A stretch of 64,000 nucleotides of DNA from assembly GCF_024298765.1 (NCBI RefSeq), contig NZ_CP101210.1; one strand, written 5' to 3'. A program made the translations under genes and the position numbers. Positions within the stretch are counted from its first letter, which is position 1. Each line of letters starts with the position of its first letter. Below, one piece after another: positions 8,286-60,634 of this stretch. The stretch comes from Escherichia coli (lineage in GTDB: Bacteria > Pseudomonadota > Gammaproteobacteria > Enterobacterales > Enterobacteriaceae). Under the pieces are notes generated by a model. It saw only the letters and a list, made by a program, of their open reading frames with translations, had not been told where the DNA came from and made no database searches.

Positions 8286-8501
8286 ATGTTTACTTATTAT
8301 CAGGCAGAAAATTCAACAGCAGAACCCGCTCTGGTTAATGCCATTGAGCAAGGCCTTCGGGCAGAGCACGGTGTTGTCACTGAAGATGACATTCTCATGG
8401 AGCTGACCAAATGGGTGGAAGCTTCTGATAACGACATCCTCAGTGATATCTACCAGCAAACGATCAATTATGTGGTCAGTGGCCAGCACCCTACGCTTTA
8501 A
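8286..8501 (+). CDS. bdm: Biofilm-dependent modulation protein Bdm
   Basis: 71-aa product from the internal ATG at 8286 (MFTYYQAENSTAEP...); the ORF-track entry 8223..8501 is an upstream extension. Confidence 0.85.
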   Translation: MFTYYQAENSTAEPALVNAIEQGLRAEHGVVTEDDILMELTKWVEASDNDILSDIYQQTINYVVSGQHPTL

Positions 8502-8602
8502 GGTGCTATGCTTGATCGGCAACCTAATTTAGGGGTTTAGCACGTGTTTCTTCGCTACGGCGATGTTGTCCTTAAAACTAGCAACAGGATTGAGGAGTTA
8601 AA

Positions 8603-8740
8603 ATGAAATCGAACCGTCAGGCACGTCATATTCTTGGACTGGACCATAAAATTTCTAACCAGCGCAAAATAGTTACCGAAGGTGACAAATCCAGCGTGGT
8701 AAATAACCCAACCGGCAGAAAACGCCCCGCTGAAAAGTAA
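8603..8740 (+). CDS. sra: Stationary-phase ribosome-associated protein Sra (RpsV)
   Basis: 45-aa ORF ([22 protein letters not shown]...) with RBS ggag; below the ORF-track size cutoff; found by reading the bdm-maeA spacer. Confidence 0.85.
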
Positions 8741-8770
8741 TTCATAACCATCAGTCCTCAATGACGATTA

Positions 8771-8800
8771 AACACCATTGCCTGCGCAATGGTGTTTTTG
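8771..8800 (+). terminator. Rho-independent terminator after sra
   Basis: Hairpin aacaccattg-cctgcg-caatggtgtt followed by tttttgttttt. Confidence 0.7.
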
Positions 8801-8896
8801 TTTTTATCTGCTTTATACTTGGGGCCGACGCCCTGGCGGTAAAGCAAAGACGATAAAAGCACCCCAGGGATGGATATTCAAAAAAGAGTGAGTGAC

Positions 8897-10594
8897 ATGG
8901 AACCAAAAACAAAAAAACAGCGTTCGCTTTATATTCCTTACGCTGGCCCTGTACTGCTGGAATTTCCGTTGTTGAATAAAGGCAGCGCCTTCAGCATGGA
9001 AGAACGCCGTAACTTCAACCTGCTGGGGTTACTGCCGGAAGTGGTCGAAACCATCGAAGAACAAGCGGAACGAGCATGGATCCAGTATCAGGGATTCAAA
9101 ACCGAAATCGACAAACACATCTACCTGCGTAACATCCAGGACACTAACGAAACCCTCTTCTACCGTCTGGTAAACAATCATCTTGATGAGATGATGCCTG
9201 TTATTTATACCCCAACCGTCGGCGCAGCCTGTGAGCGTTTTTCTGAGATCTACCGCCGTTCACGCGGCGTGTTTATCTCTTACCAGAACCGCCACAATAT
9301 GGACGATATTCTGCAAAACGTGCCGAACCATAATATTAAAGTGATTGTGGTGACTGACGGTGAACGTATTCTGGGGCTTGGTGACCAGGGCATCGGCGGG
9401 ATGGGCATTCCGATCGGTAAACTGTCACTCTATACCGCCTGTGGCGGCATCAGCCCGGCGTATACCCTTCCGGTGGTGCTGGATGTCGGGACGAACAACC
9501 AACAGCTGCTTAATGATCCGCTGTATATGGGCTGGCGTAATCCGCGTATCACTGACGACGAATACTATGAATTCGTTGATGAATTTATCCAGGCTGTGAA
9601 ACAACGCTGGCCGGACGTACTGTTGCAGTTTGAAGACTTCGCACAAAAAAATGCGATGCCGTTACTTAACCGCTATCGCAATGAAATTTGTTCTTTTAAC
9701 GATGACATTCAGGGCACTGCGGCGGTAACAGTCGGCACACTGATCGCAGCCAGCCGCGCAGCAGGTGGTCAACTGAGCGAGAAAAAGATTGTCTTCCTCG
9801 GCGCAGGCTCTGCGGGGTGCGGCATTGCCGAAATGATCATCGCCCAGACTCAGCGTGAAGGATTAAGCGAGGAAGCGGCGCGGCAGAAAGTCTTTATGGT
9901 TGATCGCTTTGGCCTGCTGACCGACAAGATGCCGAACCTGCTGCCTTTCCAGACCAAACTGGTGCAGAAGCGCGAAAACCTCAGTGACTGGGATACCGAC
10001 AGCGATGTGCTGTCACTGCTGGATGTGGTGCGTAATGTAAAACCAGATATTCTGATTGGCGTCTCAGGACAGACCGGGCTGTTTACGGAAGAGATTATCC
10101 GTGAGATGCATAAACACTGTCCGCGTCCGATCGTGATGCCGCTGTCTAACCCGACTTCACGCGTGGAAGCCACACCGCAGGACATTATCGCCTGGACTGA
10201 AGGTAACGCGCTGGTCGCCACTGGCAGTCCGTTTAACCCAGTGGTATGGAAAGATAAAATCTACCCTATCGCCCAGTGTAACAACGCCTTTATTTTCCCG
10301 GGCATCGGGCTGGGCGTTATTGCTTCCGGCGCGTCACGTATCACCGATGAGATGCTGATGTCGGCAAGTGAAACGCTTGCTCAGTATTCGCCGCTGGTCC
10401 TGAACGGCGAAGGTCTGGTACTACCGGAACTGAAAGATATTCAGAAAGTCTCCCGCGCAATTGCCTTTGCGGTTGGCAAAATGGCGCAGCAGCAAGGCGT
10501 GGCGGTGAAAACGTCTGCCGAAGCTCTGCAACAGGCCATTGATGATAATTTCTGGCACGCCGAATACCGCGACTACCGCCGTACCTCCATCTAA
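8897..10594 (+). CDS. maeA: NAD-dependent malic enzyme
   Basis: 565-aa product from the ATG at 8897 ([18 protein letters not shown]...); malic enzyme family; the ORF-track start at 8870 is an N-terminal extension. Confidence 0.92.
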
Positions 10595-10600
10595 GCCTGC

Positions 10601-10630
10601 GCCCGGTGGTGAAAGCTGCCGGGCAATTTT
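10601..10630 (+). terminator. Probable terminator after maeA
   Basis: Hairpin gcccggtggtgaaagctgccgggc followed by aatttt. Confidence 0.55.
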
Positions 10631-10727
10631 CCTCTCCCTTTTTCAGATCTCATCCATACTGGGTAGTGGCGAATAAATCTCATTTGCCTCACCTGCTATG
10701 CAGAACATCATCCGAAAAGGAGGAACT

Positions 10728-11738
10728 ATGAAGGCTGCAGTTGTTACGAAGGATCATCATGTTGACGTTACGGATAAAACACTGCGCTCACTGAAACATG
10801 GCGAAGCCCTGCTGAAAATGGAGTGTTGTGGTGTATGTCATACCGATCTTCATGTTAAGAATGGCGATTTTGGTGACAAAACCGGCGTAATTCTGGGCCA
10901 TGAAGGCATCGGTGTGGTGGCAGAAGTTGGCCCAGGTGTCACCTCATTAAAACCAGGCGATCGTGCCAGCGTGGCGTGGTTTTACGAAGGATGCGGTCAT
11001 TGCGAATACTGTAACAGTGGTAACGAAACGCTCTGCCGTTCAGTTAAAAATGCCGGATACAGCGTTGATGGCGGGATGGCGGAAGAGTGCATCGTGGTCG
11101 CCGATTACGCGGTAAAAGTGCCAGATGGCCTGGACTCGGCGGCGGCCAGCAGCATTACCTGTGCGGGGGTCACCACCTATAAAGCGGTGAAACTGTCAAA
11201 AATTCGTCCCGGTCAGTGGATTGCTATCTACGGTCTTGGCGGTCTGGGTAACCTCGCCCTGCAATACGCGAAGAATGTCTTTAACGCCAAAGTGATCGCC
11301 ATTGATGTCAATGATGAGCAGTTAAAACTGGCAACCGAAATGGGCGCTGATTTAGCGATTAACTCACGCACTGAAGACGCCGCCAAAATTGTGCAAGAAA
11401 AAACCGGTGGCGCTCACGCCGCGGTGGTGACAGCGGTAGCTAAAGCTGCGTTTAACTCGGCGGTTGATGCTGTACGAGCAGGCGGTCGTGTTGTGGCTGT
11501 CGGTCTGCCGCCGGAGTCTATGAGCCTGGACATCCCACGCCTTGTGCTGGATGGTATTGAAGTGGTCGGTTCGCTGGTCGGCACGCGCCAGGATCTAACC
11601 GAAGCCTTCCAGTTTGCCGCCGAAGGCAAAGTGGTGCCGAAAGTCGCCCTGCGTCCGTTAGCGGACATCAACACCATCTTTACCGAGATGGAAGAAGGCA
11701 AAATCCGTGGCCGTATGGTGATTGATTTCCGCCGCTAA
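10728..11738 (+). CDS. adhP: Zn-dependent alcohol dehydrogenase (propanol-preferring)
   Basis: 336-aa product from the ATG at 10728 preceded by RBS aaaggagg; medium-chain dehydrogenase motifs (GHEGIG, Cys-rich Zn site). Confidence 0.92.
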
Positions 11739-11883
11739 GAGGCCTTTGCTGCGACTGCCATGTTTGGGTCGCAGCATCACACACTCTCCAACATGAAATG
11801 GCTAAATGGATTATTGTTGCGTAGGAAGGAACAATAATGATAGTGTTCCTGGTGAAGGAACGCTACTGAGAGTAAAGACACTA

Positions 11884-12168
11884 ATGAAAATGGCCAATCA
11901 TCCCCGCCCGGGGGACATTATTCAGGAATCACTGGACGAACTTAATGTCAGCCTGCGCGAGTTTGCCAGAGCAATGGAAATTGCGCCCTCAACGGCAAGC
12001 CGATTGCTGACCGGAAAAGCAGCTTTGACGCCAGAAATGGCGATTAAACTTTCCGTGGTGATCGGCAGTTCGCCGCAAATGTGGCTGAATCTGCAAAACG
12101 CCTGGAGCCTGGCAGAGGCTGAAAAAACGGTGGATGTGTCGCGACTGCGCCGTCTGGTTACGCAATAA
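11884..12168 (+). CDS. yddM: HTH (XRE/HigA-like) DNA-binding protein YddM
   Basis: 94-aa product from the ATG at 11884; helix-turn-helix region ([22 protein letters not shown]). Confidence 0.8.
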
Positions 12169-12175
12169 TAAATAT

Positions 12176-12199
12176 CCTCCGGCATAGCCGGAGGTTTTT
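12176..12199 (+). terminator. Rho-independent terminator after yddM
   Basis: Hairpin cctccgg-cata-gccggagg followed by ttttt. Confidence 0.7.
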
Positions 12200-12202
12200 C
12201 AA

Positions 12203-12875
12203 ATGCGCCTATAAGGCTCTCTTACCAGCCGCGCCCTAACAGGCGCACACGATCTGACATTTGCATCCAACTTCGTTACTTACGGCCCGTAAACGGGCTG
12301 CCCGGATAGGGAATCGATAACTGCTCTCCCATTTTATCCTCTTCAAGCTGGTGCTTTATGTAATCCTGTATCTTCGCCGTGTTCTTACCCACCGTATCGA
12401 CGTAGTACCCTCTGCACCAGAACTCTCTGTTCCTGTATTTGAATTTCAAATCACCAAACTGCTCGTAAAGCATCAGACTGCTTTTCCCTTTCAGATATCC
12501 CATAAAGCCGGATACACTCATTTTGGGCGGGATCTCCACAAGCATATGGATATGATCTGCACAGCATTCAGCTTCAAGAATCCGTACGCTTTTCCACTCA
12601 CACAGCTTTCTCAAAATACTGCCTATTGCTCTACGCTTCTCTCTGTAGAACACTTGTCTTCGGTATTTTGGCGCAAAAACTATGTGATATTTACAGTTCC
12701 ATCGGGTGTGCGCTAAGCTCTTTTCGTTCCCCATTGGGACCCCCTTTTGATTTCTTGTTTGACACTTGCAGTTGCCAGACCGCAAGGTGTTTTAACAAAT
12801 CAAAAGGGGTTTTAATAACTGGCTCAAAGCTGAAAGCTTTCCGGAACCCCCAGCCTAGCTGGGGGTTTTCTGTGC
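12203..12875 (-). mobile_element. IS200 insertion sequence (IS200/IS605 family); boundaries approximate
   Basis: Contains the Y1 (HUH) transposase gene, an RBS-sequestering stem upstream of tnpA, and the left-end hairpin (aaacccccagctaggctgggggtt on the minus strand, + coordinates 12843..12870); ends not mapped to the base. Confidence 0.8.
12276..12734 (-). CDS. tnpA: IS200 transposase TnpA (Y1 HUH transposase)
   Basis: 152-aa product starting MGNEKSLAHTRWNCKYHIVFAPKYRR with the HIHMLVEIPP (HuH) motif; recognised as essentially the Salmonella/E. coli IS200 TnpA. Confidence 0.9.
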   Translation of the reverse strand: MGNEKSLAHTRWNCKYHIVFAPKYRRQVFYREKRRAIGSILRKLCEWKSVRILEAECCADHIHMLVEIPPKMSVSGFMGYLKGKSSLMLYEQFGDLKFKYRNREFWCRGYYVDTVGKNTAKIQDYIKHQLEEDKMGEQLSIPYPGSPFTGRK

Positions 12876-12878
12876 ACA

Positions 12879-12909
12879 AAAAAATGGCGCTTCTTAAAGC
12901 GCCATTTTC
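12879..12909 (-). terminator. Rho-independent terminator of the fdnGHI operon
   Basis: On the minus strand, hairpin aaaatggcgctttaagaagcgccatttt followed by a T-run, 20 bp past the fdnI stop. Confidence 0.7.
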
Positions 12910-12929
12910 AGCTTAAAGTTCAAAAGAGA

Positions 12930-13583
12930 TTATATCCCTTCTTCACTCTCTTTTTTCGCTTCTGCCTTCTCGATTTCACGATACCAGCGCGGATGGTGTT
13001 TCTTCGCCCAGCGACGGCTCACCTTCCCTTCGATCATCCCTTTAATCGATCCTTTCACCCAGAATGCCATATACATATGGATCAGGATGGCGTGGATCAG
13101 GATGATACCCGCAGCCGCATGGATCAGCAGGCTATAACGGACAACCTGTATCGGGAAGTACTGCGCAAAGTACGGACGCCAGATAATCACCCCGGTCACC
13201 AGCAGCACGAAAATCATGCTCATGATCGACCAGAACATCATCTTTTGCCCGGCGTTGTACTTACCGACATCCGCCACTTTATGCTCATTGCCTTTCAATA
13301 CTTCGACAATGTTCAACAGCCACGGAATATCTTTCTTATCCGGGATGTTGTGATGCACAAAACGCACAAACATAAACATCAGTGCGACGAAAATCGCAAT
13401 GCCGAAGAACGGGTGCAAAATGCGTCCCATCTGCGGCGTACCGAAGGTTTGCGTCAGCCATTGCAGCGTCGGGAAGAAGAACGAAATCCCGGACAGCGCC
13501 ACCAGGAAGAAGCAAATCACCACGGTCCAGTGACAGGCGCGATCAATAAATTTGGTGCGCACAATCATTTTCGACTTACTCAT
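12930..13583 (-). CDS. fdnI: Formate dehydrogenase-N cytochrome b556 gamma subunit
   Basis: 217-aa product from the ATG at 13583 ([19 protein letters not shown]...); 4-TM heme-binding subunit. Confidence 0.9.
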
Positions 13584-14460
13584 GATGATCCTCCTCGTCA
13601 TCGTCCACTTCCTTATTCGGGCCAATACCGATGTAGTGGAAAATCAACCCGGCAAAAGTGGCAATAAAGCCAGCCGCTGCCAGCGGTTTCAACGCGCCTT
13701 TCCACAGGCTTACCGAGGTGTCGATCTTCGGATCTTTCGGCAGACCGTGATACAGCTCCGGCTGATCGGCGTGATGCAGCACGTACATAACGTGCGTACC
13801 ACCGACCCCTTCCGGGTTGTAGACGCCAGCATGTTCGTAACCACGCGCTTTCAGTTTCGCCACGCGCTGTTCCGCCAGCTCCAGCATCTCCTTCTTGGTG
13901 CCGAAGTGGATAGCCCCGGTCGGACAGGTTTTCACACAAGCCGGTTCCTGGCCGACGCTGACGCGATCGACGCAGAGCGTGCATTTATATACCCGGTTAT
14001 CCTCTTTGTTGAGGCGCGGAATATTAAACGGACACCCGGCAATGCAGTAACCACAGCCGATGCAGTTTTCCGACTGGAAATCGACAATCCCGTTAGCGTA
14101 CTGAATGATTGCACCAGCAGACGGGCACGCCTTCAGGCAGCCCGGATCTTCACAGTGCATACAGCCGTCTTTACGGATCAGCCACTCCAGCTTGCCGTTC
14201 TGTTCGGTTTCGCTAAAGCGCATCACCGTCCAGGACTTGGCGCTCAGATCGGCGGGGTTATCGTAAACCCCGACGCAGTGCCCCACTTCATCACGGATGT
14301 CGTTCCACTCTGAACACGCCACCTGACAGGCTTTACAGCCGATACAGGTGGAAACGTCGATAAGTTTCGCGACTTCTGCTTTGTAATCACGCACCTGAGA
14401 AGGCGGCGTGATGGAGTTAGTTGCGGACCTTTTGATAATGTCCTGCGTTTCCATAGCCAT
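13576..14460 (-). CDS. fdnH: Formate dehydrogenase-N iron-sulfur beta subunit
   Basis: 294-aa ORF with four ferredoxin-type Cys clusters (CxxCxxCxxxCP) and a C-terminal TM helix; overlaps the fdnI start by 8 nt. Confidence 0.93.
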
Positions 14461-14472
14461 CTGTTCGCCCCC

Positions 14473-17400
14473 TTACGCCTTCTCGATGTTGACTAAGAAC
14501 GCTTTATATTCCGGCGTTTGCGAGTTTGCATCACCGACATTCGGCGTCAGAGTGTTAGCGATATAACCTTTACGCGCGACACCCTCAAAGCCCCAGTGGA
14601 TTGGAATACCCACCGTTTCAACCTGCTGACCGTTTACATTCAGCGGTTTCAGACGGCGCGTTACCACAGCCACCGCGCGGATAAAGCCACGCTTGCTGGA
14701 GACAGTGACACGATCGCCATTGGCAATGCCTTTCGCCGCCGCCAGCGTTTCGCTGATTTCCACAAACTGTTCCGGCTGAGCAATTGCGTTGAGCAATGCG
14801 TGCTTGGTCCAGGTGTGGAAGTGCTCGGTCAGACGATAGGTCGTACCCACATACGGGAACTGCTCTTTTTTACCCATCCGCAGCGCGTCTTGTTCATACA
14901 GACGAACAACCGGGTTAGACACCACGTTCGGATGCAGCGGGTTAGTGCCCAGCGGCGTTTCGATTGGCTCGTAGTGTTCCGGGAACGGACCTTCCGCCAT
15001 TTTGTTGATGGCAAACAGGCGTCCCATCCCTTCCGGCTGCATGATAAACGGCCCGGTTGGCGTACCCGGTGCGGCATTGCCGAAGTCCGGAATATCGTTA
15101 CCCGTCCACTTGCTGCCGTTCCACTGGATCAGCATCCGTTTCGGATCCCACGGTTTACCGTTGATATCCGCCGAAGCACGGTTGTACAGCACGCGACGGT
15201 TGAGCGGCCACGCCCAGGCCCATCCCAGCGTATTCCCCAGACCGGACGGGTCGGAGTTATCGCGGTTAGCCATCTGGTTGCCCTGCTCTGTCCAGCTACC
15301 GGTGTAGATCCAGCAAGAAGATGCGGTTGTACCATCATCACGCAGATGCGCAAAGCTACTCAGCAACTGACCTTTCTTCGCAATCAGCACGCCATTAGCG
15401 TCATAGAGATCTTCCAGCGCATAGCCGTTGTTCTCTTTCGCCACTTCGTCAGATTGCGGTTCGTGCGGCTGCTTGTAGTTCCAGCTCATCTTCATCAGCG
15501 GTTCTACGCCTTTACCACCCTCGGCCTGGTACAGCTCGCGCAGATGATGGTAGATACCCGCCAGAATTTCGCCGTCGTTACGTGCTTCGCCCGGCGCGTC
15601 CTGACCTTTCCAGTGCCACTGCAACCAGCGACCGGAGTTAGCAATAGAACCATCTTCTTCAGCAAAGCAGGTCGAAGGCAGACGGAATACTTCAGTCTGA
15701 ATGGACGCCGGATCGACATCGTTCGACTCGCCGTGGTTCTGCCAGAAGGTAGAGGTTTCAGTCACCAGCGGATCGATAACCACCATGTACTTCAGCTTGC
15801 TCAGGCAGCTCACCACTTTGTTTTTGTCCGGGAAGGACGCAACCGGGTTAAAGCCCTGGCAGAAATAACCGGTGACTTTGCCTTCGTCCATCATGTTGAA
15901 ATACTTGATGACGTCGTAGGTCTGGTCCCACTTCGGCAGCCAGTCGTAGCCCCAGTTGTTCTCTTTTTGCGCGGCATCGCCGTAGAAAGATTTCATCAGG
16001 CTAACGAAGAACTTCGGATAGTTGCTCCAGTAGTTCACCTGATCAGCCAGCGTCGCTTTCGGCGTATTCGCTTCCAGATACGACTGCAAATCAACCTGTT
16101 TTTCTGACGGCAGCGTCAGATAACCCGGCAGGCTGGTTGAGAGCAGACCTAAGTCGGTCAGGCCCTGAATGTTGGAGTGACCACGCAATGCGTTCACGCC
16201 GCCACCGGCCATACCCATGTTACCGAGCAGCAACTGGATCATCGCCATAGTACGGATGTTCTGCGCACCCACGGTGTGCTGCGTCCAGCCCAGCGCGTAC
16301 AGGAAGGTGGTTGTGCGATCCGGTGCGCTGGTGGAGGCCAGCACTTCACACACTTTCAGGAAGTCGGCTTTTGGCGTACCGCAGATGTTTTCTACTACGT
16401 CCGGCGTGTAGCGGGAAACGTGCGCTTTCAGCAGGTTCCACACACAGCGCGGATGAGTCAGTGTTTCATCGCGTTTCGCATAGCCGTTTTCATCGAACTG
16501 ATAGTTCCAGGACGATTTATCGTATTGCCGTTTTTCAGCGTCGTAGCCGCTGAACAGACCGTCTTCGAAAGCAAAATCATCACGCACCAGCAGGCTGGCG
16601 TTGGTGTAATGCTTAACGTATTCGGCGTTGATTTTGTTGTTTTCGATCAGGTAGCGCAAAACGCCAGACAGGAACGTAATGTCCGTACCGGAACGAATAG
16701 GTGCGTAAATATCCGCCACAGAAGCGGTACGCGTAAAACGGGGATCGACAACGATCAAGGTTGCATCGTTGTTGTTTTTCGCTTCCATCGCCCAGCGGAA
16801 ACCGACGGGATGCGCTTCAGCAGCGTTACCGCCCATCACCATTACGACGTTAGCGTTTTTGATATCCACCCAGTGGTTGGTCATCGCACCGCGACCAAAT
16901 GTTGGAGCAAGACTTGCTACCGTTGGTCCGTGTCAGACGCGCGCCTGGTTGTCTACCGCCAGCATCCCGAGGGAGCGGGCAAATTTTTGAGTCAGCATCC
17001 CGGTTTCGTTGCTGGCACCGGAGGCACACAGCATACCGGTAGAAAGCCAACGGTTTACCGTTACGCCCTGCTCGTTCTTTTCAATAAAGTTAGCGTCACG
17101 GTCAGCTTTCATCAGCTTCGCAATACGGGAGAATGCTTCTTCCCAGCTAATGCGCTGCCATTTGTCAGAACCTGGCGCACGATATTCCGGGTAGCGCAGA
17201 CGGTTTTCGCTGTTGACGTAATCCAGCAAACCGGCCCCTTTCGGGCACAGCGCACCACGGCTTACCGGATGATCCGGGTCACCTTCAATGTGATAAATCG
17301 CTTCTCTGGCGTTTTTCGCGCCATCACCCAGGCTATACATCAATAGCCCGCAACCTACGGAACAGTATGTGCAGGTGTTACGGATCTCTTTCGCGCGTAA

Positions 17401-17520
17401 TAATTTGTAGTTTCGCGCCTGAGCCAGTGCTTGCTTCGGGGCAAAGCCCAATGCTGCTACTGTTGTTCCCGCCATACCGCCCGCGCAGATTTTAAAAAAT
17501 TGTCTGCGACTGACGTCCAT
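14473..17520 (-). CDS. fdnG: Formate dehydrogenase-N catalytic alpha subunit (selenoprotein, molybdopterin enzyme)
   Basis: Two consecutive in-frame ORFs (16933..17520 and 14473..16884) joined across a single in-frame TGA at 16933..16935, giving a 1015-aa protein; Tat signal peptide (SRRQFFK); TGA followed by a SECIS-like hairpin. Confidence 0.92.
16890..16935 (-). promoter_or_regulatory. Selenocysteine recoding site of fdnG: UGA codon plus 3' SECIS-like stem-loop
   Basis: mRNA reads UGA-CAC-GGA-CCA-ACG-GUA-GCA-AGU-CUU-GCU-CCA...; a stem-loop lies immediately 3' of the UGA, at the position typical of bacterial SECIS elements. Confidence 0.7.
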
Positions 17521-17639
17521 TGCTTTCCTCTTTTTTCAGGGGTATTACTGCGCGAGGAAACTAACAGTAAAATTCTGAATCTTTTTGCGCGAAATCAAAA
17601 AGAACACGTGTTTGCCACAAAATAATCCGCCTGCGCAAA

Positions 17640-17653
17640 TTGACCTACCTCAA
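17640..17653. promoter_or_regulatory. Candidate FNR box in the fdnG-yddG divergent promoter region
   Basis: ttgacctacctcaa matches TTGAT-N4-ATCAA at 8 of 10 positions, about 125 bp upstream of the fdnG start codon; distance to the transcription start unknown. Confidence 0.3.
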
Positions 17654-17751
17654 TAGCGGTAGAAAAACGCACCACTGCCTGACAGGCCAGTTAAAAAAAT
17701 GCTATAAAATTCAGCTTAATTTTTAACGGCAAGAGAGACAAAACAGCGAGC

Positions 17752-18633
17752 ATGACACGACAAAAAGCAACGCTCATAGGGCTAATAGCGATCGTCCTGT
17801 GGAGCACGATGGTAGGATTGATTCGCGGTGTCAGTGAGGGACTCGGCCCGGTCGGCGGCGCAGCTGCTATCTATTCATTAAGCGGGCTGCTGTTAATCTT
17901 CACGGTTGGATTTCCGCGTATTCGGCAGATCCCGAAAGGCTATTTACTCGCCGGGAGTCTGTTATTCGTCAGCTATGAAATCTGTCTGGCGCTTTCCTTA
18001 GGGTATGCGGCGACCCGTCATCAGGCGATTGAAGTGGGGATGGTGAACTATCTATGGCCCAGCCTGACAATTCTCTTTGCCATTCTGTTTAATGGTCAGA
18101 AAACCAACTGGCTGATTGTACCAGGATTATTATTAGCCCTGGTCGGCGTCTGCTGGGTGTTAGGCGGTGACAATGGGTTACATTATGATGAAATTATCAA
18201 TAATATCACCACCAGCCCATTGAGTTATTTCCTGGCGTTCATTGGGGCGTTTATCTGGGCAGCCTACTGCACAGTAACGAATAAATACGCACGCGGATTT
18301 AATGGAATTACCGTTTTTGTCCTGCTAACGGGAGCAAGTCTGTGGGTTTACTATTTTCTTACGCCACAACCAGAAATGGTATTTAGCACGCCCGTCATGA
18401 TTAAACTCATCTCTGCGGCATTTACCTTAGGATTTGCTTATGCTGCATGGAATGTCGGTATATTACATGGCAACGTCACCATAATGGCGGTAGGTTCGTA
18501 TTTTACGCCCGTCCTTTCCTCAGCGCTTGCAGCCGTGCTGCTCAGCGCCCCGCTGTCGTTCTCGTTCTGGCAAGGCGCGCTAATGGTCTGCGGCGGTTCC
18601 CTGCTCTGCTGGCTGGCGACACGTCGTGGCTAA
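17752..18633 (+). CDS. yddG: Aromatic amino acid exporter (DMT superfamily)
   Basis: 293-aa ORF; 10-TM EamA-like membrane protein; divergent from fdnG. Confidence 0.9.
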   Translation: MTRQKATLIGLIAIVLWSTMVGLIRGVSEGLGPVGGAAAIYSLSGLLLIFTVGFPRIRQIPKGYLLAGSLLFVSYEICLALSLGYAATRHQAIEVGMVNYLWPSLTILFAILFNGQKTNWLIVPGLLLALVGVCWVLGGDNGLHYDEIINNITTSPLSYFLAFIGAFIWAAYCTVTNKYARGFNGITVFVLLTGASLWVYYFLTPQPEMVFSTPVMIKLISAAFTLGFAYAAWNVGILHGNVTIMAVGSYFTPVLSSALAAVLLSAPLSFSFWQGALMVCGGSLLCWLATRRG

Positions 18634-18905
18634 AATAATTGTCGGGTCTACGGCCCGGCAGTTAATCAGATAAACTCTGACAATATTAAAAAATAAATTT
18701 CAAATACCAGAAAGTCATTTTAGTTACATTTAGTAACACATATCTGTCTGTTTAATCCACATTCTGCCCCCGCAGTTACGCTTTCTTATCTATTCTTCTA
18801 ATCAGCACTTCACCTGATTCATCCTTAATTCTAATAACTGGCTATTGCGCCTTACCTCCTGTTTTGTCTTTTTTTCATTACCAATGTGTGCATGTGAGGA
18901 ACAAT

Positions 18906-20294
18906 ATGGCACTGCAAAATGAGAAAAATAGTCGTTATCTTTTACGCGACTGGAAACCAGAAAATCCGGCCTTCTGGGAAAATAAAGGAAAGCACATTGC
19001 ACGAAGAAACCTCTGGATATCAGTCAGTTGTCTACTTCTTGCCTTCTGTGTCTGGATGCTATTTAGCGCAGTTACTGTTAATCTCAATAAAATCGGTTTT
19101 AATTTCACTACCGATCAACTCTTTTTATTAACCGCATTACCCTCCGTTTCTGGCGCATTATTGCGTGTCCCCTACTCCTTTATGGTGCCTATATTCGGTG
19201 GACGCCGATGGACGGTTTTTAGTACTGCAATCCTGATTATTCCTTGCGTCTGGCTCGGAATTGCCGTGCAAAATCCGAATACCCCTTTTGGGATATTTAT
19301 CGTTATCGCTTTGCTATGCGGTTTTGCAGGTGCGAACTTTGCTTCGAGCATGGGCAATATCAGTTTCTTCTTTCCAAAAGCCAAACAAGGGAGCGCTCTT
19401 GGGATTAATGGCGGATTAGGAAACTTAGGTGTAAGTGTGATGCAGCTGGTTGCACCGCTGGTCATTTTTGTCCCCGTATTTGCCTTTCTCGGCGTCAATG
19501 GCGTACCGCAGGCCGACGGTTCGGTGATGTCGCTGGCGAATGCCGCATGGATTTGGGTGCCATTACTGGCGATTGCCACGATCGCCGCCTGGTCAGGGAT
19601 GAATGATATCGCCAGTTCACGCGCCTCAATTGCCGACCAGCTGCCAGTGTTACAACGCCTGCATCTCTGGCTGCTGAGCCTGCTTTACCTTGCCACCTTC
19701 GGTTCGTTTATCGGTTTTTCTGCGGGTTTTGCCATGCTGGCGAAAACTCAGTTCCCTGATGTGAATATTCTGCGCCTGGCGTTCTTTGGCCCATTTATTG
19801 GTGCCATCGCGCGGTCGGTTGGTGGTGCTATTTCCGATAAATTCGGCGGCGTGCGGGTGACGTTGATCAACTTTATTTTTATGGCGATTTTCAGCGCCCT
19901 GCTGTTCCTTACCTTACCGGGCACAGGCTCCGGTAATTTCATCGCATTTTACGCCGTATTTATGGGGTTGTTTCTGACCGCAGGTCTGGGAAGTGGTTCT
20001 ACTTTCCAGATGATCGCCGTCATCTTTCGCCAGATAACCATTTATCGGGTGAAGATGAAAGGCGGTAGTGATGAGCAAGCTCAGAGAGAAGCCGTCACCG
20101 AAACGGCGGCGGCTCTGGGCTTTATCTCAGCCATTGGCGCAGTGGGCGGCTTTTTCATTCCGCAGGCGTTTGGCATGTCGCTCAATATGACCGGCTCTCC
20201 GGTGGGCGCGATGAAAGTGTTTTTAATCTTCTACATCGTTTGTGTGCTGCTGACCTGGCTGGTTTATGGTCGGCGGAAGTTCAGCCAAAAATAA
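18906..20294 (+). CDS. narU: Nitrate/nitrite transporter (MFS, NarK family)
   Basis: 462-aa product from the ATG at 18906 (MALQNEKNSRYLLRDWKPENPAFWEN...); MFS membrane protein upstream of narZYWV. Confidence 0.9.
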   Translation: MALQNEKNSRYLLRDWKPENPAFWENKGKHIARRNLWISVSCLLLAFCVWMLFSAVTVNLNKIGFNFTTDQLFLLTALPSVSGALLRVPYSFMVPIFGGRRWTVFSTAILIIPCVWLGIAVQNPNTPFGIFIVIALLCGFAGANFASSMGNISFFFPKAKQGSALGINGGLGNLGVSVMQLVAPLVIFVPVFAFLGVNGVPQADGSVMSLANAAWIWVPLLAIATIAAWSGMNDIASSRASIADQLPVLQRLHLWLLSLLYLATFGSFIGFSAGFAMLAKTQFPDVNILRLAFFGPFIGAIARSVGGAISDKFGGVRVTLINFIFMAIFSALLFLTLPGTGSGNFIAFYAVFMGLFLTAGLGSGSTFQMIAVIFRQITIYRVKMKGGSDEQAQREAVTETAAALGFISAIGAVGGFFIPQAFGMSLNMTGSPVGAMKVFLIFYIVCVLLTWLVYGRRKFSQK

Positions 20295-20388
20295 GAGATC
20301 GATGCCTGACACGTCTTATCAGGCTACAACCGTGTCGCATCCGACAAGGCATCAGATCCCAATTCATTCCTGGAGCAGGAGTTATGTC

Positions 20389-23300
20389 ATGAGTAAACTT
20401 TTGGATCGCTTTCGCTACTTTAAACAAAAGGGCGAAACCTTTGCCGATGGTCACGGACAGGTGATGCACAGCAACCGCGACTGGGAGGACAGCTATCGCC
20501 AGCGTTGGCAGTTCGACAAAATCGTGCGTTCCACCCACGGTGTTAACTGTACAGGCTCCTGTAGCTGGAAAATCTACGTTAAAAATGGTCTGGTGACCTG
20601 GGAAATCCAACAGACCGACTACCCGCGCACTCGCCCTGACCTGCCAAATCATGAACCTCGCGGCTGCCCGCGTGGCGCAAGTTACTCCTGGTATCTCTAC
20701 AGCGCTAACCGCCTGAAATACCCGCTCATTCGTAAACGACTGATTGAACTGTGGCGCGAAGCCCTCAAGCAACACAGCGATCCGGTACTGGCGTGGGCAT
20801 CGATTATGAACGATCCGCAAAAGTGCCTGAGCTATAAACAAGTGCGTGGACGCGGTGGCTTTATCCGCTCCAACTGGCAGGAGCTAAATCAGCTGATTGC
20901 CGCCGCTAACGTCTGGACCATCAAAACTTACGGCCCGGATCGCGTTGCCGGGTTCTCGCCGATTCCGGCGATGTCGATGGTTTCTTACGCCGCCGGAACA
21001 CGCTATCTGTCGCTGTTAGGTGGCACCTGTTTAAGCTTCTACGACTGGTATTGCGACCTGCCGCCCGCCTCGCCGATGACCTGGGGTGAGCAAACCGACG
21101 TGCCAGAATCTGCCGACTGGTATAACTCCAGTTACATCATCGCCTGGGGGTCTAACGTACCGCAGACACGTACGCCGGACGCCCATTTCTTTACCGAAGT
21201 ACGCTACAAAGGCACTAAAACCATCGCAATTACCCCTGACTACTCTGAAGTGGCCAAATTGTGCGACCAGTGGCTGGCACCAAAACAAGGCACTGATAGC
21301 GCCCTGGCGATGGCAATGGGCCATGTGATTTTAAAAGAGTTTCATCTCGATAATCCCAGCGACTACTTTATCAACTACTGCCGCCGCTACAGCGACATGC
21401 CGATGCTGGTAATGCTGGAACCTCGCGACGATGGCAGCTACGTACCCGGGCGCATGATCCGCGCGTCTGACCTGGTAGATGGACTGGGCGAAAGCAACAA
21501 TCCGCAGTGGAAAACCGTAGCAGTTAATACAGCAGGCGAACTGGTGGTGCCGAACGGTTCGATTGGTTTTCGCTGGGGAGAAAAAGGCAAATGGAATCTG
21601 GAATCCATTGCCGCCGGTACGGAAACCGAATTGTCGTTAACTCTGCTCGGTCAACATGATGCCGTTGCAGGCGTGGCCTTCCCCTACTTTGGCGGCATTG
21701 AAAATCCGCATTTTCGCAGCGTAAAACACAATCCGGTCCTGGTGCGCCAATTGCCCGTTAAAAACCTGACATTAGCCGATGGCAACACCTGTCCGGTGGT
21801 CAGCGTTTATGATTTGGTACTGGCGAATTACGGCCTCGATCGCGGGCTGGAAGATGAAAACAGCGCGAAAGATTACGCTGAAATCAAACCGTACACCCCA
21901 GCCTGGGGTGAGCAAATTACCGGTGTGCCGCGCCAGTATATTGAAACCATCGCTCGTGAATTTGCCGATACTGCCCATAAAACGCATGGGCGCTCGATGA
22001 TTATCCTCGGCGCAGGTGTTAACCACTGGTACCACATGGACATGAACTACCGGGGAATGATCAATATGCTGATCTTCTGCGGTTGTGTCGGGCAAAGCGG
22101 TGGCGGATGGGCACACTATGTCGGTCAGGAAAAACTGCGCCCACAAACTGGCTGGTTGCCGCTGGCCTTTGCGCTCGACTGGAACCGCCCACCGCGCCAG
22201 ATGAACAGCACCTCGTTTTTCTACAATCATTCCAGTCAATGGCGCTATGAAAAAGTCTCTGCTCAGGAGTTACTTTCACCGCTCGCCGATGCCAGTAAGT
22301 ACAGCGGTCATCTGATTGATTTCAACGTTCGTGCCGAACGTATGGGCTGGCTACCTTCTGCGCCGCAGCTGGGGTGTAACCCGCTCGGGATTAAAGCTGA
22401 AGCCGACAAGGCCGGATTATCCCCCACAGAATTTACCGCCCAGGCGCTGAAATCGGGCGATTTACGCATGGCCTGCGAACAACCAGATAGCGGCAGCAAT
22501 CATCCGCGTAATTTGTTTGTCTGGCGTTCTAACCTGCTTGGCTCCTCCGGCAAAGGCCACGAGTATATGCAGAAGTATCTGCTGGGAACCGAAAGTGGGA
22601 TTCAGGGTCAGGAACTCGGTGCCAGCGACGGGATCAAACCAGAAGAAGTCGAGTGGCAAACTGCGGCGATTGAAGGCAAGCTCGACCTGCTGGTGACGCT
22701 CGACTTCCGTATGTCCAGTACCTGCCTGTTCTCCGATATCGTTCTGCCCACCGCCACCTGGTACGAAAAAGACGATATGAACACCTCGGATATGCATCCG
22801 TTTATTCATCCCCTATCTGCGGCGGTCGATCCGGCGTGGGAATCACGCAGCGACTGGGAAATCTACAAAGGTATTGCCAAAGCCTTTTCGCAAGTGTGCG
22901 TGGGCCATCTTGGCAAAGAAACCGACGTGGTATTACAACCACTGCTGCATGACTCTCCGGCAGAACTCTCACAGCCGTGTGAAGTGCTCGACTGGCGCAA
23001 AGGCGAATGCGATCTGATTCCAGGTAAAACCGCGCCCAATATTGTGGCGGTGGAACGCGACTACCCTGCTACCTATGAACGCTTTACCTCGCTCGGGCCA
23101 TTGATGGACAAACTTGGCAACGGCGGTAAAGGGATTTCGTGGAATACCCAGGATGAAATCGATTTCCTCGGCAAACTCAACTACACCAAGCGTGAAGGCC
23201 CGGCACAGGGGCGTCCGCTGATTGACACCGCCATTGACGCATCAGAAGTGATTCTGGCTCTTGCACCGGAAACCAATGGTCATGTTGCAGTCAAAGCGTG

Positions 23301-24129
23301 GCAGGCGCTGGGCGAGATCACCGGACGCGAACATACCCATCTGGCGCTGCACAAAGAGGACGAGAAGATTCGCTTTCGCGATATTCAGGCGCAGCCACGT
23401 AAAATTATCTCCAGCCCCACATGGTCTGGTCTGGAAAGCGATCACGTCTCCTATAACGCGGGATACACCAACGTTCATGAGTTAATTCCGTGGCGCACGC
23501 TGTCGGGACGCCAGCAGCTCTATCAGGATCATCCGTGGATGCGTGCTTTTGGTGAAAGCCTGGTGGCTTATCGCCCGCCTATTGACACCCGTAGCGTCAG
23601 TGAAATGCGCCAGATACCGCCAAACGGCTTCCCGGAAAAAGCACTTAACTTCCTGACGCCGCACCAGAAATGGGGCATTCACTCAACCTACAGTGAAAAC
23701 CTGCTAATGCTGACGCTCTCTCGCGGTGGACCAATTGTCTGGATTAGCGAAACCGATGCCCGTGAACTGACCATTGTCGATAACGACTGGGTGGAAGTGT
23801 TTAACGCCAACGGCGCGCTGACGGCCCGCGCGGTGGTCAGCCAACGTGTACCGCCGGGTATGACCATGATGTATCACGCCCAGGAACGCATTATGAATAT
23901 TCCTGGTTCGGAAGTAACTGGCATGCGCGGCGGCATTCATAACTCGGTCACCCGCGTTTGTCCGAAACCAACGCATATGATTGGCGGTTACGCGCAGCTG
24001 GCCTGGGGCTTTAATTACTACGGCACCGTCGGCTCGAACCGTGACGAATTCATCATGATCCGCAAGATGAAGAACGTTAACTGGCTGGATGATGAAGGTC
24101 GCGATCAGGTACAGGAGGCGAAAAAATGA
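20389..24129 (+). CDS. narZ: Respiratory nitrate reductase Z alpha subunit
   Basis: 1246-aa product from the ATG at 20389 (MSKLLDRFRYFKQKGETF...); molybdopterin oxidoreductase; the ORF-track 1287-aa version is an upstream extension. Confidence 0.92.
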   Translation: MSKLLDRFRYFKQKGETFADGHGQVMHSNRDWEDSYRQRWQFDKIVRSTHGVNCTGSCSWKIYVKNGLVTWEIQQTDYPRTRPDLPNHEPRGCPRGASYSWYLYSANRLKYPLIRKRLIELWREALKQHSDPVLAWASIMNDPQKCLSYKQVRGRGGFIRSNWQELNQLIAAANVWTIKTYGPDRVAGFSPIPAMSMVSYAAGTRYLSLLGGTCLSFYDWYCDLPPASPMTWGEQTDVPESADWYNSSYIIAWGSNVPQTRTPDAHFFTEVRYKGTKTIAITPDYSEVAKLCDQWLAPKQGTDSALAMAMGHVILKEFHLDNPSDYFINYCRRYSDMPMLVMLEPRDDGSYVPGRMIRASDLVDGLGESNNPQWKTVAVNTAGELVVPNGSIGFRWGEKGKWNLESIAAGTETELSLTLLGQHDAVAGVAFPYFGGIENPHFRSVKHNPVLVRQLPVKNLTLADGNTCPVVSVYDLVLANYGLDRGLEDENSAKDYAEIKPYTPAWGEQITGVPRQYIETIAREFADTAHKTHGRSMIILGAGVNHWYHMDMNYRGMINMLIFCGCVGQSGGGWAHYVGQEKLRPQTGWLPLAFALDWNRPPRQMNSTSFFYNHSSQWRYEKVSAQELLSPLADASKYSGHLIDFNVRAERMGWLPSAPQLGCNPLGIKAEADKAGLSPTEFTAQALKSGDLRMACEQPDSGSNHPRNLFVWRSNLLGSSGKGHEYMQKYLLGTESGIQGQELGASDGIKPEEVEWQTAAIEGKLDLLVTLDFRMSSTCLFSDIVLPTATWYEKDDMNTSDMHPFIHPLSAAVDPAWESRSDWEIYKGIAKAFSQVCVGHLGKETDVVLQPLLHDSPAELSQPCEVLDWRKGECDLIPGKTAPNIVAVERDYPATYERFTSLGPLMDKLGNGGKGISWNTQDEIDFLGKLNYTKREGPAQGRPLIDTAIDASEVILALAPETNGHVAVKAWQALGEITGREHTHLALHKEDEKIRFRDIQAQPRKIISSPTWSGLESDHVSYNAGYTNVHELIPWRTLSGRQQLYQDHPWMRAFGESLVAYRPPIDTRSVSEMRQIPPNGFPEKALNFLTPHQKWGIHSTYSENLLMLTLSRGGPIVWISETDARELTIVDNDWVEVFNANGALTARAVVSQRVPPGMTMMYHAQERIMNIPGSEVTGMRGGIHNSVTRVCPKPTHMIGGYAQLAWGFNYYGTVGSNRDEFIMIRKMKNVNWLDDEGRDQVQEAKK

Positions 24130-33430: not shown

Positions 33431-33982
33431 CTATCTTCTTAGCGATGTCTTTCTGGTATCACATTGGATCGGTGCAATTATTTTTCCTTTAATACCCATT
33501 ATGTTAAGAAATTCAGAAACAGCTGTAATCTCATTGGTTTTTTCATTCGTCTTGATCTTCCAAGGAATCTGACTGTGCATTATTGAGAACACACTAATAA
33601 CGTGAATCGCTCCCTTGCGACGACTCTTGTCATAAGAGTACCGGAGCGTTTTTCCATCAATTGCAATGACGTCTTTATCATCTGAAGAATGGCAGTCAAG
33701 CATCCAGTTAATAAAGCACTCATGAAATTTTGCAGGACTGATACAGGATACAACTCTGGCAATGGTATCGTGAACAGGAATACCATTATCAAAATCACCA
33801 TATTGCTTCAAAAAATCGAGATGTGTTTCCCCAAAATCCTCTATATCTTCCCAGCCTTCTGCACCCGAAATAACGGCACAAATAGTCAACAGTAGAATAT
33901 CCGATAATTTATGTTCCACTTTCCAGGCTTGTCTGTAATCGGGGATAATAGAAATATGTTCCATCAATTTTTTAAGTTCCAT
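33431..33982 (-). pseudogene. ydcC: Truncated H-repeat-associated (ISAs1-family transposase-like) gene, N-terminal fragment
   Basis: 183-aa ORF matching only the N-terminal half of the roughly 378-aa H-repeat protein; the remainder is missing where the DGC gene begins. Confidence 0.7.
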
Positions 33983-34222: not shown

Positions 34223-34552
34223 ATGGCTGAACACGATATTACGCCAGAAGTCGCCATTTCCAAAACACAGCGCCGCTATAAAGTCGGCTATGTCAGAGCC
34301 CGCCACATAAACAGCAAAACCTACATGACCACGTACTACTCACGACACCCCAGCCTGAACCTTAAGGGCGACTGGCTGAAAGAGGCCGGATTTGATACCG
34401 GACGGGGTGTCACGGTGAAGATTTCGGAGGGGTGCCTGACCATCATCGCTGACAGTGACGAGGTGCAGGAACTGCGGGAGGAACTTTATCAGGTTAAACA
34501 GGTGGTTAAGGGGATGCGGAACGGGATGTTTAGTGTGCTGAACGAGAATTAA
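34223..34552 (+). CDS. SymE-family type I toxin-like protein (AbrB/SpoVT-fold)
   Basis: 109-aa ORF with RBS agagg; core LKGDWLKEAGFDTGRGVTVKISEGCLTIIA closely parallels E. coli SymE as I recall it ([30 protein letters not shown]). Confidence 0.65.
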   Translation: MAEHDITPEVAISKTQRRYKVGYVRARHINSKTYMTTYYSRHPSLNLKGDWLKEAGFDTGRGVTVKISEGCLTIIADSDEVQELREELYQVKQVVKGMRNGMFSVLNEN

Positions 34553-34905: not shown

Positions 34906-35312
34906 CTATATCTATCCTCACCATTGTCCCATCAGAACGTTTAATATTTATATGAGGCAAAGAACCATGCCCTGTGCCTTTATGGTCATCATGACCATAT
35001 ACACGACCAGTATTAGAATCAATAGGGTAACCTTTCCTATAACGGACAGTACCATCTCTTTTCTTAAATTGTTCCATCTTATGTTTTTTTCTAATACCGG
35101 CGGCATCCTGCGAACCGATCCCTCTTACTTTTTGAGCATCAGGAAAGGCCTCCATCAATAAATCATGGGCTTCCTGTTTTGATTTAACTGTGACAACGGT
35201 TCCTTGAGGCCCCTCTCGCAAAGATTTCGCGTTTTTGGAACATGCAGTCAGTCCCAGCGGATCGATCCAAGAGAGCGGATTCGGCGCGTATTGGTAGAGG
35301 TTTATTCCCCCC
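34898..35312 (-). CDS. Rhs C-terminal segment (core end INLYQYAPNPLSWIDPLGL plus variable toxin tip), out of frame with the Rhs core ORF
   Basis: Reading frame B on the minus strand gives GGINLYQYAPNPLSWIDPLGL followed by about 117 aa of His-rich variable tip (YGHDDHKGTGHGSLPH); it is joined to the core only if the G7 run at 35307..35313 is read as G6. Confidence 0.65.
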
Positions 35313-38300
35313 CGCTAACCCTATCGGATCCGTTACCATGAACCGCCCGACATCCGGATCATAGTACCTGTGCAGATTGTAATGCAGTCCCGTTTCCCTG
35401 TCGAGGTACTGTCCCTGGTAGCGCAGGTTCTGCGCCACCCCGCCGTGGTCCTTCTCCTGTATCGTGTTACCCCAGACCTGATACCCCGTCTCCCACACGA
35501 TTTTCCCGTCACTGTCCGTCATCTCTTCCGGCGCGCCGTTCACATCCGTGTGAAAATACAGTATCCGGTTCGGGCCCTCTTTGCCCGCCTTATCCACCCG
35601 CGCCAGCGGTTCATAACTCCCCGGGTCCCTGTAGATGTACAGGCTGTCTGTTCCCTCCGGCCTGCTCTCCTGCGCCAGCCGCATTCCGTCCCATAAAAAT
35701 GCCGTCCGGTTGTACGGTTTACCGTCAGGGCTGATGTGCTGTTTTTCCGTCCGCCTCCCCAGCGCATCGTACACATACCGGTACGTTCCCCGCGCTGTCG
35801 TCACTTCCACCATCCGGTGTTCCGCATCATAACGGTAACTCTGCGTGCCGCTCCGCCCCTCCTTTTCCACCGCACGGCCAAATTCGTCGTAACGGTAGTG
35901 CACACCACGGTAAGACATCAGCCGGTTGAACGGCACCACGCTGTTTTCTGCCGTGGCCCTTTCCCCCGCGCGCCGCCCCAGCAGGTTTCCCGCCGCGTCG
36001 TACTGCCAGCTCGCCAGATACCCCTCATCCTCCGAGCGGCACGCCGTGATGCGCCCCGTGGGGTCGTAGAAGTAATCCGTTTCCCCCCGCCGGCTGTGCC
36101 GCGTCTTCAGCAGTTCATCCTCGCCACTGTAGCTGTACTGCCGGTCCGTGAACGTCTCCGGTACCACCCCGCGCATCCCGCTGTATGTCTCCCTGCGCTT
36201 CAGCCGCCCGGCGGGGTCGTAAAGCTGCCGCGTGCTCAGTCGCCCCTGACTTCTGAGCACTTCACGGTGCAGGGCGTCACGAGTGAACTCGCTGATGACC
36301 TCCCGGTCCAGATTTATCTGCTGGAGATGGCCGCTGCCGTAGTACAGATGACGCTGCGTTCTGCCGTCCGGAAAGGTGGTGGCTGTCCGGTTGCTGAGTT
36401 CATCGTACTGATGGGTCAGGACGCCCTGCGCCGTCTCCTCAGTCAGCATCCGCCCCAGTCTGTCGTAACTGAAACGGATAATCTCCGGTGCGTCTGTTTC
36501 CCCGGCATCCGACCGTCGGCGGCGGATTTCCAGTAACTGGTCTGCCGCATCATGGACGTATTCCGTACGGCTATCGGCTGTCTCCTTTGCCGTGAGCCGG
36601 CCCGCCGCATCACGTGCCAGCCGGTGGCGGATTTCACCGCCCCGGTCCCCGGTGAACACCACTTCCGTGACCGCGTTCAGCGCGTTGTAGCGGTACGTCT
36701 GGCGGCAGCCGTCCGGATTTATCTGCTCCGCCAGACGGTCCAGCACGTCATGGCGGAACCGGTAGCTTTCTCCGTTCTCGTTTGTCAGCGTGACCAGACG
36801 CCCGTAAGCATCGTACCCGAACGCCGTCCTGCGCCCCGTCGCGTCTGTCCGGCTGCGCACCCGGCCCTGCCCGTCCCGCTGCCAGCGCGTTATCCTCCCC
36901 ATCGGGCTGGTGTACTTCACCAGCCTGCCCGCCGCGTCCGACTGGTAATTCACCGTGCGGCCGTCCGCCAGTATCACCTCCGTCAGGTGGCCGCTGTCGT
37001 CATACCCGTAGCGCGTGCTGTGGCTCTGCGCGTCTGTCATCCGTATCAGCCGCGTGCGTTCGTCGTAGAACCAGGCCGTCTGCGAGCCGGAACAGTCCGT
37101 GTGCCGCATGAGCTGCCCGTCTTCGTTCCACTGAAGGTATTTATTCCCCCCGCGCGCATCGGTTATCTGCACCACCTGGCCGTGGCGGTCATACTGATAC
37201 CGGGTGTTCTGCTGCAGCGGGTCGGTCACCGCAAGAAGATTGCCGCGTTCATCGTACTCACAGCACCAGCTGTTCCCCGCCGCGTCCACCTCCGTTTCCG
37301 GCTGGTGCCACACCGGGTGCCACTGTGTCTGTGCCACCCGCCCCAGCGGGTCGTGCGTCTCCGTGATATGCCCCTGCCGGTCATACACATAGCGCCATTT
37401 GCCGCCCTGCGCATCGGTCATTCCCAGTAACAGCCGTTCTTCGTCGCTCCAGCGGAACGTCGTCACCTGCCCGGCTTCGTCCTGGTACGCCGTCACCTGA
37501 TTCTGCGCGTCCCACTGATGATAACGCGTGCGCCCCAGCCCGTCCGTCACGCACAGCCTGCGTGACGCCAGGCTCCACGCCAGCCGGTACTGTTCACCGC
37601 TGTCCGTGTGGTGCCCCGTCACCCGCCACGCTGCGTCATCCGGGCCTTCATACCAGCTCCACTGGTAATAATACCCTTCGCCGCCCGGCTGGCGGTGCAG
37701 GGTCATGCAGTGGTTTTCGTCGTAAGCAAACTCGCGCAGCAGGTGTCCCGTGCTGTCGTACACGCCGTTCAGGTCGCCGGCCTCGTCATAGCGGTAACGA
37801 CGCAGCAGTAAAGGAGCCGTCTCAGGGAAATGCTGATAAATCTGTGTCACCCGCCGGGGATGCGCCGCCAGTTCATAATGCAGACGGATGCACGGACGCT
37901 GCTGTTCACCGCTGATTTGCGTGATGCGCCCCAGCTCGTCGTAGTACAGATTCAGACAGTTGCTGTTGCGGTCGCCCAGCATTTTCAGCCGCTGGCGCTG
38001 CGGGTGATGCGGGTCGGCTTCAAACAGAAAAAACTGCCCGTCATCGCTGCTGATAAGCCAGTGCCCCTGCTCACCCCGCCTTACCGCCAGTCCTTCGCCG
38101 GGGCTGTAAAACCCGCTCCCCGGCAGCACGGCCTCCATATCCAGGCGTCGCCCCATGCCCGACACAAAGGTCATGCAGTTTTCGTCAGCAGTACCCGGCG
38201 TGCGCCCGAGGCTGACTTCATACATCACGCTCCAGCCCTGCCCGAACATCCCTTCCGTGCGGTCGTCACGACTGCTGTACACGCGCTGCCAGTCCAGCGG

Positions 38301-39560: not shown

Positions 39561-39578
39561 GTCCCGTTCCCTGTGTGA

Positions 39579-40031
39579 TTAATTCGTCCCGGCTTCCTGC
39601 CGCATCCTGAAGCGCAGATTCTTTTTAATTTCAGCCCAGCGCGTCATATCTGCCGGGGTCAGCGGTGTGGTTCGGGCGTAGGTGAAGGCCATCATGACCC
39701 GCTCACCCGGCAATACAAATGCCACCTGACACTGGTACACCTGCTCGTTACCCCGGAGAAACTGGCTCTGTATTTCCAGTCCTTCTTCACCGTCATTAAT
39801 CCCCACCCGTGTTACCTGAACGGGCGTGTAGTGAAGATCCTTTACCTGTTTCTCCAGTTTTTTCATTTGCTGTTCAATCTGGGAGGCTAATTCGTCTCCT
39901 TCCTGCATCTGGCCCCGGCTGATAATGAGTGCAGCGTCGGGATCGCTGAGGCGCAGCATATTAATAGTACTGTCCTGAATAATATTCCCGGAAAAAGTTA
40001 CAACAGTTTCATTGAGATAATACTCCGTCAT
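39579..40031 (-). CDS. DUF1795 (Eag-family) effector chaperone
   Basis: 150-aa ORF immediately upstream of the prePAAR Rhs gene; size and position typical of Eag chaperones. Confidence 0.7.
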   Translation of the reverse strand: MTEYYLNETVVTFSGNIIQDSTINMLRLSDPDAALIISRGQMQEGDELASQIEQQMKKLEKQVKDLHYTPVQVTRVGINDGEEGLEIQSQFLRGNEQVYQCQVAFVLPGERVMMAFTYARTTPLTPADMTRWAEIKKNLRFRMRQEAGTN

Positions 40032-40081
40032 AATGATATGAGTCCTTTTAAATTAATAAATTATTTAATGATGGTTTTTGT

Positions 40082-60591: not shown

Positions 60592-60634
60592 AATTTTGAC
60601 TGTCTCTCGCATGTCATTAACCTTCTTATGGCGA

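Follow-up and report, generated by a model that had tools for sequence, protein, structure and literature searches.

The window, by which is meant the whole stretch of 64,000 nucleotides of Escherichia coli chromosomal DNA that was analyzed, carries on its minus strand the three genes of formate dehydrogenase-N (Fdh-N), with fdnG containing an in-frame UGA as codon 196 and a hairpin of a known SECIS family placed directly behind it (Table 1). The arrangement is closely matched in E. coli 14EC020 (NZ_CP024138.1), to which positions 8400..23600 of the window align with zero mismatches (100% identity) and whose annotation agrees in coordinates with the large open reading frames (ORFs) elsewhere in the window. 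In the RefSeq annotation of 14EC020 the fdnGHI genes are flanked by yddG and by narU-narZ, and fdnG is a single intact coding sequence of 3048 nt without a pseudogene flag. Several complete E. coli chromosomes match the 3.2 kb surrounding fdnG at 100% identity, and the fdnG region is found in 5425 of 5426 complete E. coli genomes with the whole gene being 95-99% identical in most. The genes for the beta subunit (FdnH) and the Fdh-N-specific gamma subunit (FdnI) follow fdnG, and both pass the cutoffs of their equivalog models. The alternative model for FdnI, NF007924 (cytochrome b556 subunit), was rejected with a score of 270 bits, below its cutoff of 341, whereas the Fdh-N gamma model NF007558 passes.

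Table 1. Features of the fdnGHI locus, with positions in the window, strand and basis of assignment
Feature	Position	Strand	Basis
fdnI, Fdh-N gamma (cytochrome b) subunit	12930..13583	-	NF007558, 486 bits vs cutoff 339; RefSeq
fdnH, Fdh-N beta (four [4Fe-4S]) subunit	13576..14460	-	TIGR01582, 482 bits vs cutoff 335; RefSeq
fdnG, formate dehydrogenase-N alpha (catalytic, Mo-bisMGD/[4Fe-4S]/selenocysteine) subunit, 1015 aa including Sec196	14473..17520	-	Reading frame; RefSeq; TIGR01553; 1KQF_A; Pfam
SECIS element (preceding GUC, UGA and whole hairpin)	16880..16938	-	Rfam SECIS_3, RF01989
Upper stem-loop, minimal SelB-binding part (predicted here)	16904..16921	-	Minimum free energy (MFE) and centroid folds
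UGA codon 196, read as selenocysteine	16933..16935	-	Sole internal stop; aligns with X196 of 1KQF_A; fdoG stop at same codon
Tat (twin-arginine) signal peptide, residues 1-33 (MDVSRRQFFK...QALA)	17422..17520	-	Read from translation

The ORF list divides fdnG into two minus-strand ORFs, 16933..17520 (195 aa) and 14473..16884 (803 aa), which share one frame and are separated by a single TGA, as the sequence-only reading had stated and as translation of the whole gene in one frame bears out. Of the 1016 codons just two are stops, codon 196 and the terminal codon 1016, and the stretch of 48 nt (16885..16932, codons 197-212, 16 codons) that separates the TGA from the first ATG of the downstream ORF is free of them. 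Extra in-frame stops or frameshifts across the junction were looked for through codons 1-1016 and none is present; both alternative frames contain stops close to the junction. The sequence there reads ...GCG CGC GUC UGA CAC GGA CCA ACG..., the TGA running from 16935 to 16933 on the minus strand. Two long ORFs also lie antisense to fdnG, 14518..16107 (+) of 529 aa and 16177..17346 (+) of 389 aa with the latter spanning the SECIS; neither is annotated in RefSeq (14EC020), and codon composition most likely accounts for both.

Chain A of the Fdh-N crystal structure (1KQF_A) is matched by the read-through protein along residues 1-1015, and the TGA in the window coincides with a non-standard residue of that chain, X196. 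Sec196 is the molybdenum ligand in Fdh-N. The TIGR01553 equivalog model aligns protein residues 2-1014 with profile positions 1-1009 at 1620.1 bits against a cutoff of 814.2, which together with the end-to-end match to 1KQF_A and the RefSeq name supports the earlier naming of the split gene as fdnG. The order of domains is Tat signal, Fe4S4, molybdopterin and MGD-binding, with the Pfam domains Molybdop_Fe4S4 (PF04879) at residues 44-104, Molybdopterin (PF00384) at 107-589 and Molydop_binding (PF01568) at 893-1008. The Tat signal claimed for the 1015-aa read-through subunit is evident in the translation, where SRRQFFK occupies residues 4-10 and is followed by a hydrophobic stretch and an A-L-A site, and cleavage is predicted at the end of residues 1-33. 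A few substitutions separate the protein from 1KQF_A, those visible in the printed alignment being F342L, A366E, A666S and A933N. Compared with K-12 fdnG, strain-level amino acid polymorphisms occur only outside the SECIS, and K-12 AG100 has the same 76 nt around the UGA. The gene and the element are the same as the K-12 fdnG Sec196 UGA and SECIS (Berg et al. 1991; 1KQF).

Comparison with all Rfam families identifies the element as SECIS_3 (RF01989) with 84.3 bits against a gathering threshold of 63, an E value of 8.9e-20 and coverage of model positions 1-59 of 59, in line with the earlier proposal that a stem-loop following the TGA fits selenocysteine (Sec) insertion. It is the sole SECIS match in a gathering-threshold scan of the whole 64-kb window. 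The UGA corresponds to model positions 4-6 and lies inside the coding region with the hairpin immediately 3' to it. The fdhF-type model SECIS_2 was rejected as the family, scoring 28.8 bits against a gathering threshold of 70. A hand-written pattern for the minimal E. coli SECIS (TGA-N11-GGU-4 bp stem-GU loop-CC) matches once, at 16935, when the two strands of the 64 kb are searched.

The hairpin folds from the 59 nt and also from the 45 nt after the UGA, the latter being the fold that the sequence-only reading had proposed as a check, and it displays a bulged U17 and, in its loop, G23/U24 (nucleotides are numbered with the U of the UGA as 1). The upper helix starts 11 nt past the UGA and opens with the pairs G15-C32 and G16-C31, continuing with A18-U30, G19-C29, C20-G28, A21-U27 and possibly A22-U26. 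U17 (16919) is bulged between G16-C31 and A18-U30 in the MFE and centroid folds alike, and the apical loop is formed by G23 (16913), U24 (16912) and C25 (16911). The hallmarks described for E. coli SECIS elements are a bulged U17, SelB contacts at the loop bases G23/U24, and a minimal upper stem-loop that spans nt 15-31 and is set 11 nt away from the UGA (PMC8659212, summarizing Liu et al. 1998), and fdnG shows each of them at the corresponding distance; the lower stem is the dispensable or less important part (PMC8659212). In fdnG the lower helix is poorly defined by the data because the Rfam consensus structure and the MFE fold place it in different registers. The folding energy of the 59 nt is ordinary (-17.4 kcal/mol, z = -0.77, with 39 of 200 shuffled sequences at least as stable), and thermodynamic stability was therefore rejected as evidence for the hairpin; the evidence beyond chance is the score of the covariance model together with the conservation.

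In 5393 of 5433 E. coli records the 76 nt surrounding the fdnG UGA show no nucleotide change. The paralogue fdoG (formate dehydrogenase-O), which sits in another operon, fdoGHI-fdhE, also has a TGA at codon 196 as its sole internal stop, and it agrees with fdnG at every one of the 63 nt starting from GUC-UGA. The two proteins are 77% identical (782 of 1016 positions) and fdnG shares 74.7% nucleotide identity overall with K-12 fdoG, the longest exact run being 71 nt, which begins at codon 195 and covers the SECIS, and the next longest 35 nt. The 71-nt run, placed within window positions 16862..16938 (-), starts one codon before the UGA and is twice the length of the next. All 20 of the 20 degenerate codons in 196-217 are identical between fdnG and fdoG compared with a fraction of 0.578 gene-wide (approximately 2e-5 if codons are independent). 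With these 20 codons identical and the 76 nt unchanged in a gene whose overall identity is 95-99% in most genomes, the synonymous sites are frozen, as would be expected for an mRNA that must both code and fold. Gene conversion could contribute to the 71-nt identity beside the RNA constraint.

The second point of comparison is fdhF (formate dehydrogenase-H), the reference bacterial SECIS, in which the UGA is likewise followed at once by the hairpin. The query sequence for the fdhF SECIS is found with 100% identity within the annotated fdhF gene of 5418 genomes. Among the first 25 nt 21 are identical between fdnG and fdhF, and G15-G16, the bulged U17, G23, U24 and C25 are located at equal distances from the UGA. 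The differences are a 3' arm that is one nt longer in fdnG, giving either the extra A22-U26 pair or a 5-nt loop, a lower stem that differs, an inverted pair at position 18, and the closest Rfam model, which is SECIS_2 for fdhF and not the SECIS_3 of fdnG. Position 18 forms an A-U pair in fdnG, a U-A pair in fdhF and a G-C pair in the SECIS_3 consensus, and the SECIS_3 model pairs 21-33 and 24-30 are A-U in fdnG compared with G-C and C-G in the consensus; pairing is therefore kept through double changes. The three E. coli formate dehydrogenase elements are described as the best characterized bacterial SECIS elements (PMC13188914).

The machinery for decoding Sec is encoded outside the window, which contains no sel gene, no tRNA-Sec and no tRNA gene at all. 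The presence of selB, selC and selD in the genome, proposed earlier as a further check, is confirmed in NZ_CP024138.1 and extends to selA: selA and selB lie at 207444-210676, selD at 2233003-2234046 and the tRNA-Sec gene (selC) at 131490-131584, adjoining an integrase. With the K-12 genes as queries, selAB are found in 5425, selC in 5424 and selD in 5425 of 5426 complete E. coli genomes. The tRNA-Sec gene in NZ_CP024138.1 is flanked over 105000..131584 by a tyrosine integrase and approximately 25 kb of IS-rich DNA that also carries an autotransporter and a TonB-dependent receptor, and this region is a genomic island inserted at selC.

The division of fdnG by the mechanical ORF list would also be seen if the gene were a pseudogene with a nonsense mutation at codon 196, the two ORFs being its remnants. 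The probability of this is vanishingly small: there is a single stop with no frameshift and no further defects, the 76 nt conserved in 5393 of the 5433 E. coli records include the TGA itself, fdoG has its TGA at the equivalent codon, a non-standard residue occupies that position in the solved structure 1KQF, a SECIS above the Rfam threshold follows the TGA, and RefSeq applies no pseudogene flag. Hardly any weight can be given either to two separate genes, one for a 195-aa Tat-signal/[4Fe-4S] protein and one for an 803-aa molybdopterin protein starting from the ATG at 16884. Ribosomes often terminate at a UGA that has a SECIS behind it, recoding amounting to ~30-40% in fdhF constructs (PMC4513850), and a 195-aa product is probably made; however, the Pfam Molybdopterin domain crosses the junction at residue 196, TIGR01553 and 1KQF_A align across it without a break, and the TGA and the ATG are separated by 16 codons of conserved coding sequence (HGPTVASLAPTFGRGA), which FdoG shares without change.

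The remaining explanation accepts translation through the UGA and assigns it to SECIS-independent read-through by a near-cognate tRNA-Trp or tRNA-Cys, with the hairpin being a by-product of the conserved peptide HGPTVASLAPTF. That peptide is highly conserved after the UGA and some nucleotide conservation is expected from this alone, and the stability of the hairpin is unexceptional. Against this explanation, synonymous positions are frozen too, with 20 of 20 degenerate codons identical compared with 0.578 gene-wide, and the SelB contact features U17, G23 and U24 are found at the exact fdhF distances, in stems whose pairs are kept via double changes relative to both fdhF and the Rfam consensus. 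The matching genome has the complete sel machinery, and the fdnG stem-loop is described as essential for Sec insertion (Berg et al. 1991, J Biol Chem 266:22386, cited as reference 46 in PMC13188914). Read-through without the SECIS is accordingly judged highly improbable, and it is virtually certain that the locus is the native E. coli fdnGHI operon in which UGA196 of fdnG is recoded as Sec via the 3' SECIS hairpin. The fdnG Sec196 codon and its SECIS are already known, being the textbook case of Sec recoding in a respiratory formate dehydrogenase, and nothing new is learned from their presence here; the encoding of Sec by the fdnG UGA goes back to Berg et al. 1991 (J Biol Chem 266:22380, cited as reference 73 in PMC13188914).

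The direct observations are the anatomy of the element, the gene to which it belongs, its match to a SECIS family, its conservation and the occurrence of the sel genes, to which the established literature adds SelB binding and selenium incorporation as the likely sequence of events. The mRNA directly 3' of the UGA would fold into the bacterial SECIS hairpin, and SelB-GTP carrying Sec-tRNA(Sec), which SelA produces from the selC tRNA and the selenophosphate supplied by SelD, would bind the apical stem-loop and deliver its cargo to the UGA in the ribosomal A site. The lower helix is expected to melt as the ribosome nears, and RF2 would terminate translation on ribosomes where delivery of Sec-tRNA fails (PMC4513850). 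Translation continuing past the UGA would yield the 1015-aa Tat-exported catalytic subunit with Sec196 ligating the molybdenum. Because recoding is only partial, ~30-40% for the fdhF constructs (PMC4513850), an appreciable share of the ribosomes may stop at codon 196 of fdnG and release a 195-aa fragment consisting of the Tat signal and the [4Fe-4S] domain, by analogy with fdhF. If a function of this termination fragment were true, it could titrate Tat or chaperone components or report selenium status. Such a functional fragment and recurrent fdnG/fdoG gene conversion centered on the SECIS are two separate ideas, and that either holds is considered very unlikely.

Anaerobic induction of fdnG is known. 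A FNR-box-like sequence, TTGATTTCGCGCAA, is present at 17585..17598 (-), 65-78 nt upstream of the fdnG ATG with 2 mismatches, and fits this induction, yet such matches occur at chance frequency, the FNR-box scan giving 43 matches in the window against 34.8 expected. Consensus scans for sigma-70 promoters and terminators over 12700..17800 likewise return sites no more common than in shuffled sequence, and regulation can be read from neither scan. On the other side of the operon, the IS200C transposase gene tnpA (12276..12734, -) is placed between fdnI and yddM in this strain background, and an Rfam STnc490 match at 12744..12867 (-) with 146 bits against a threshold of 56 accompanies IS200C in the region beginning 63 nt downstream of the fdnI stop.

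Further into the window, an Rfam isrA match at 34294..34422 (-) with 118.8 bits against a threshold of 51 lies antisense in a SymE-family type I toxin coding sequence (34223..34552, +), and the two look like a SymE/SymR-like toxin and antisense RNA pair. An ISAs1 remnant (33432..33982) adjoins this toxin coding sequence. The island at 35184..43181 (-), located between a GGDEF gene and ansP, encodes an RHS repeat core protein of 1458 aa, a DcrB-related protein, VgrG, which belongs to type VI secretion, and a further Rhs fragment, and is probably a type VI secretion system effector/immunity cassette. Small toxin/antitoxin genes are annotated at 52537..52710 (-), 60175..60811 (-) and 11884..12168 (+), comprising ortT (orphan toxin), hicA/hicB and yddM; yddM is a HigA-family antitoxin and has no annotated toxin partner beside it.

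The one expectation of the sequence-only reading that fails concerns annotation, as it had anticipated that automatic pipelines would miscall fdnG as a pseudogene. RefSeq describes an intact coding sequence of 3048 nt in 14EC020, and in 40 of 40 genomes sampled across the ranking the UGA site is labeled fdnG, with the RefSeq annotation of nearly all records in the collection being produced by the NCBI PGAP pipeline. Naive ORF callers do split the gene, as the ORF list illustrates, and some simple annotation pipelines output fdnG-type genes as two fragments. The value of the finding is one of quality control only: stop-to-stop ORF tracks split bacterial selenoprotein genes, and the signs of such a split are a lone in-frame UGA, an Rfam SECIS match, a domain spanning the junction and sel genes in the genome.
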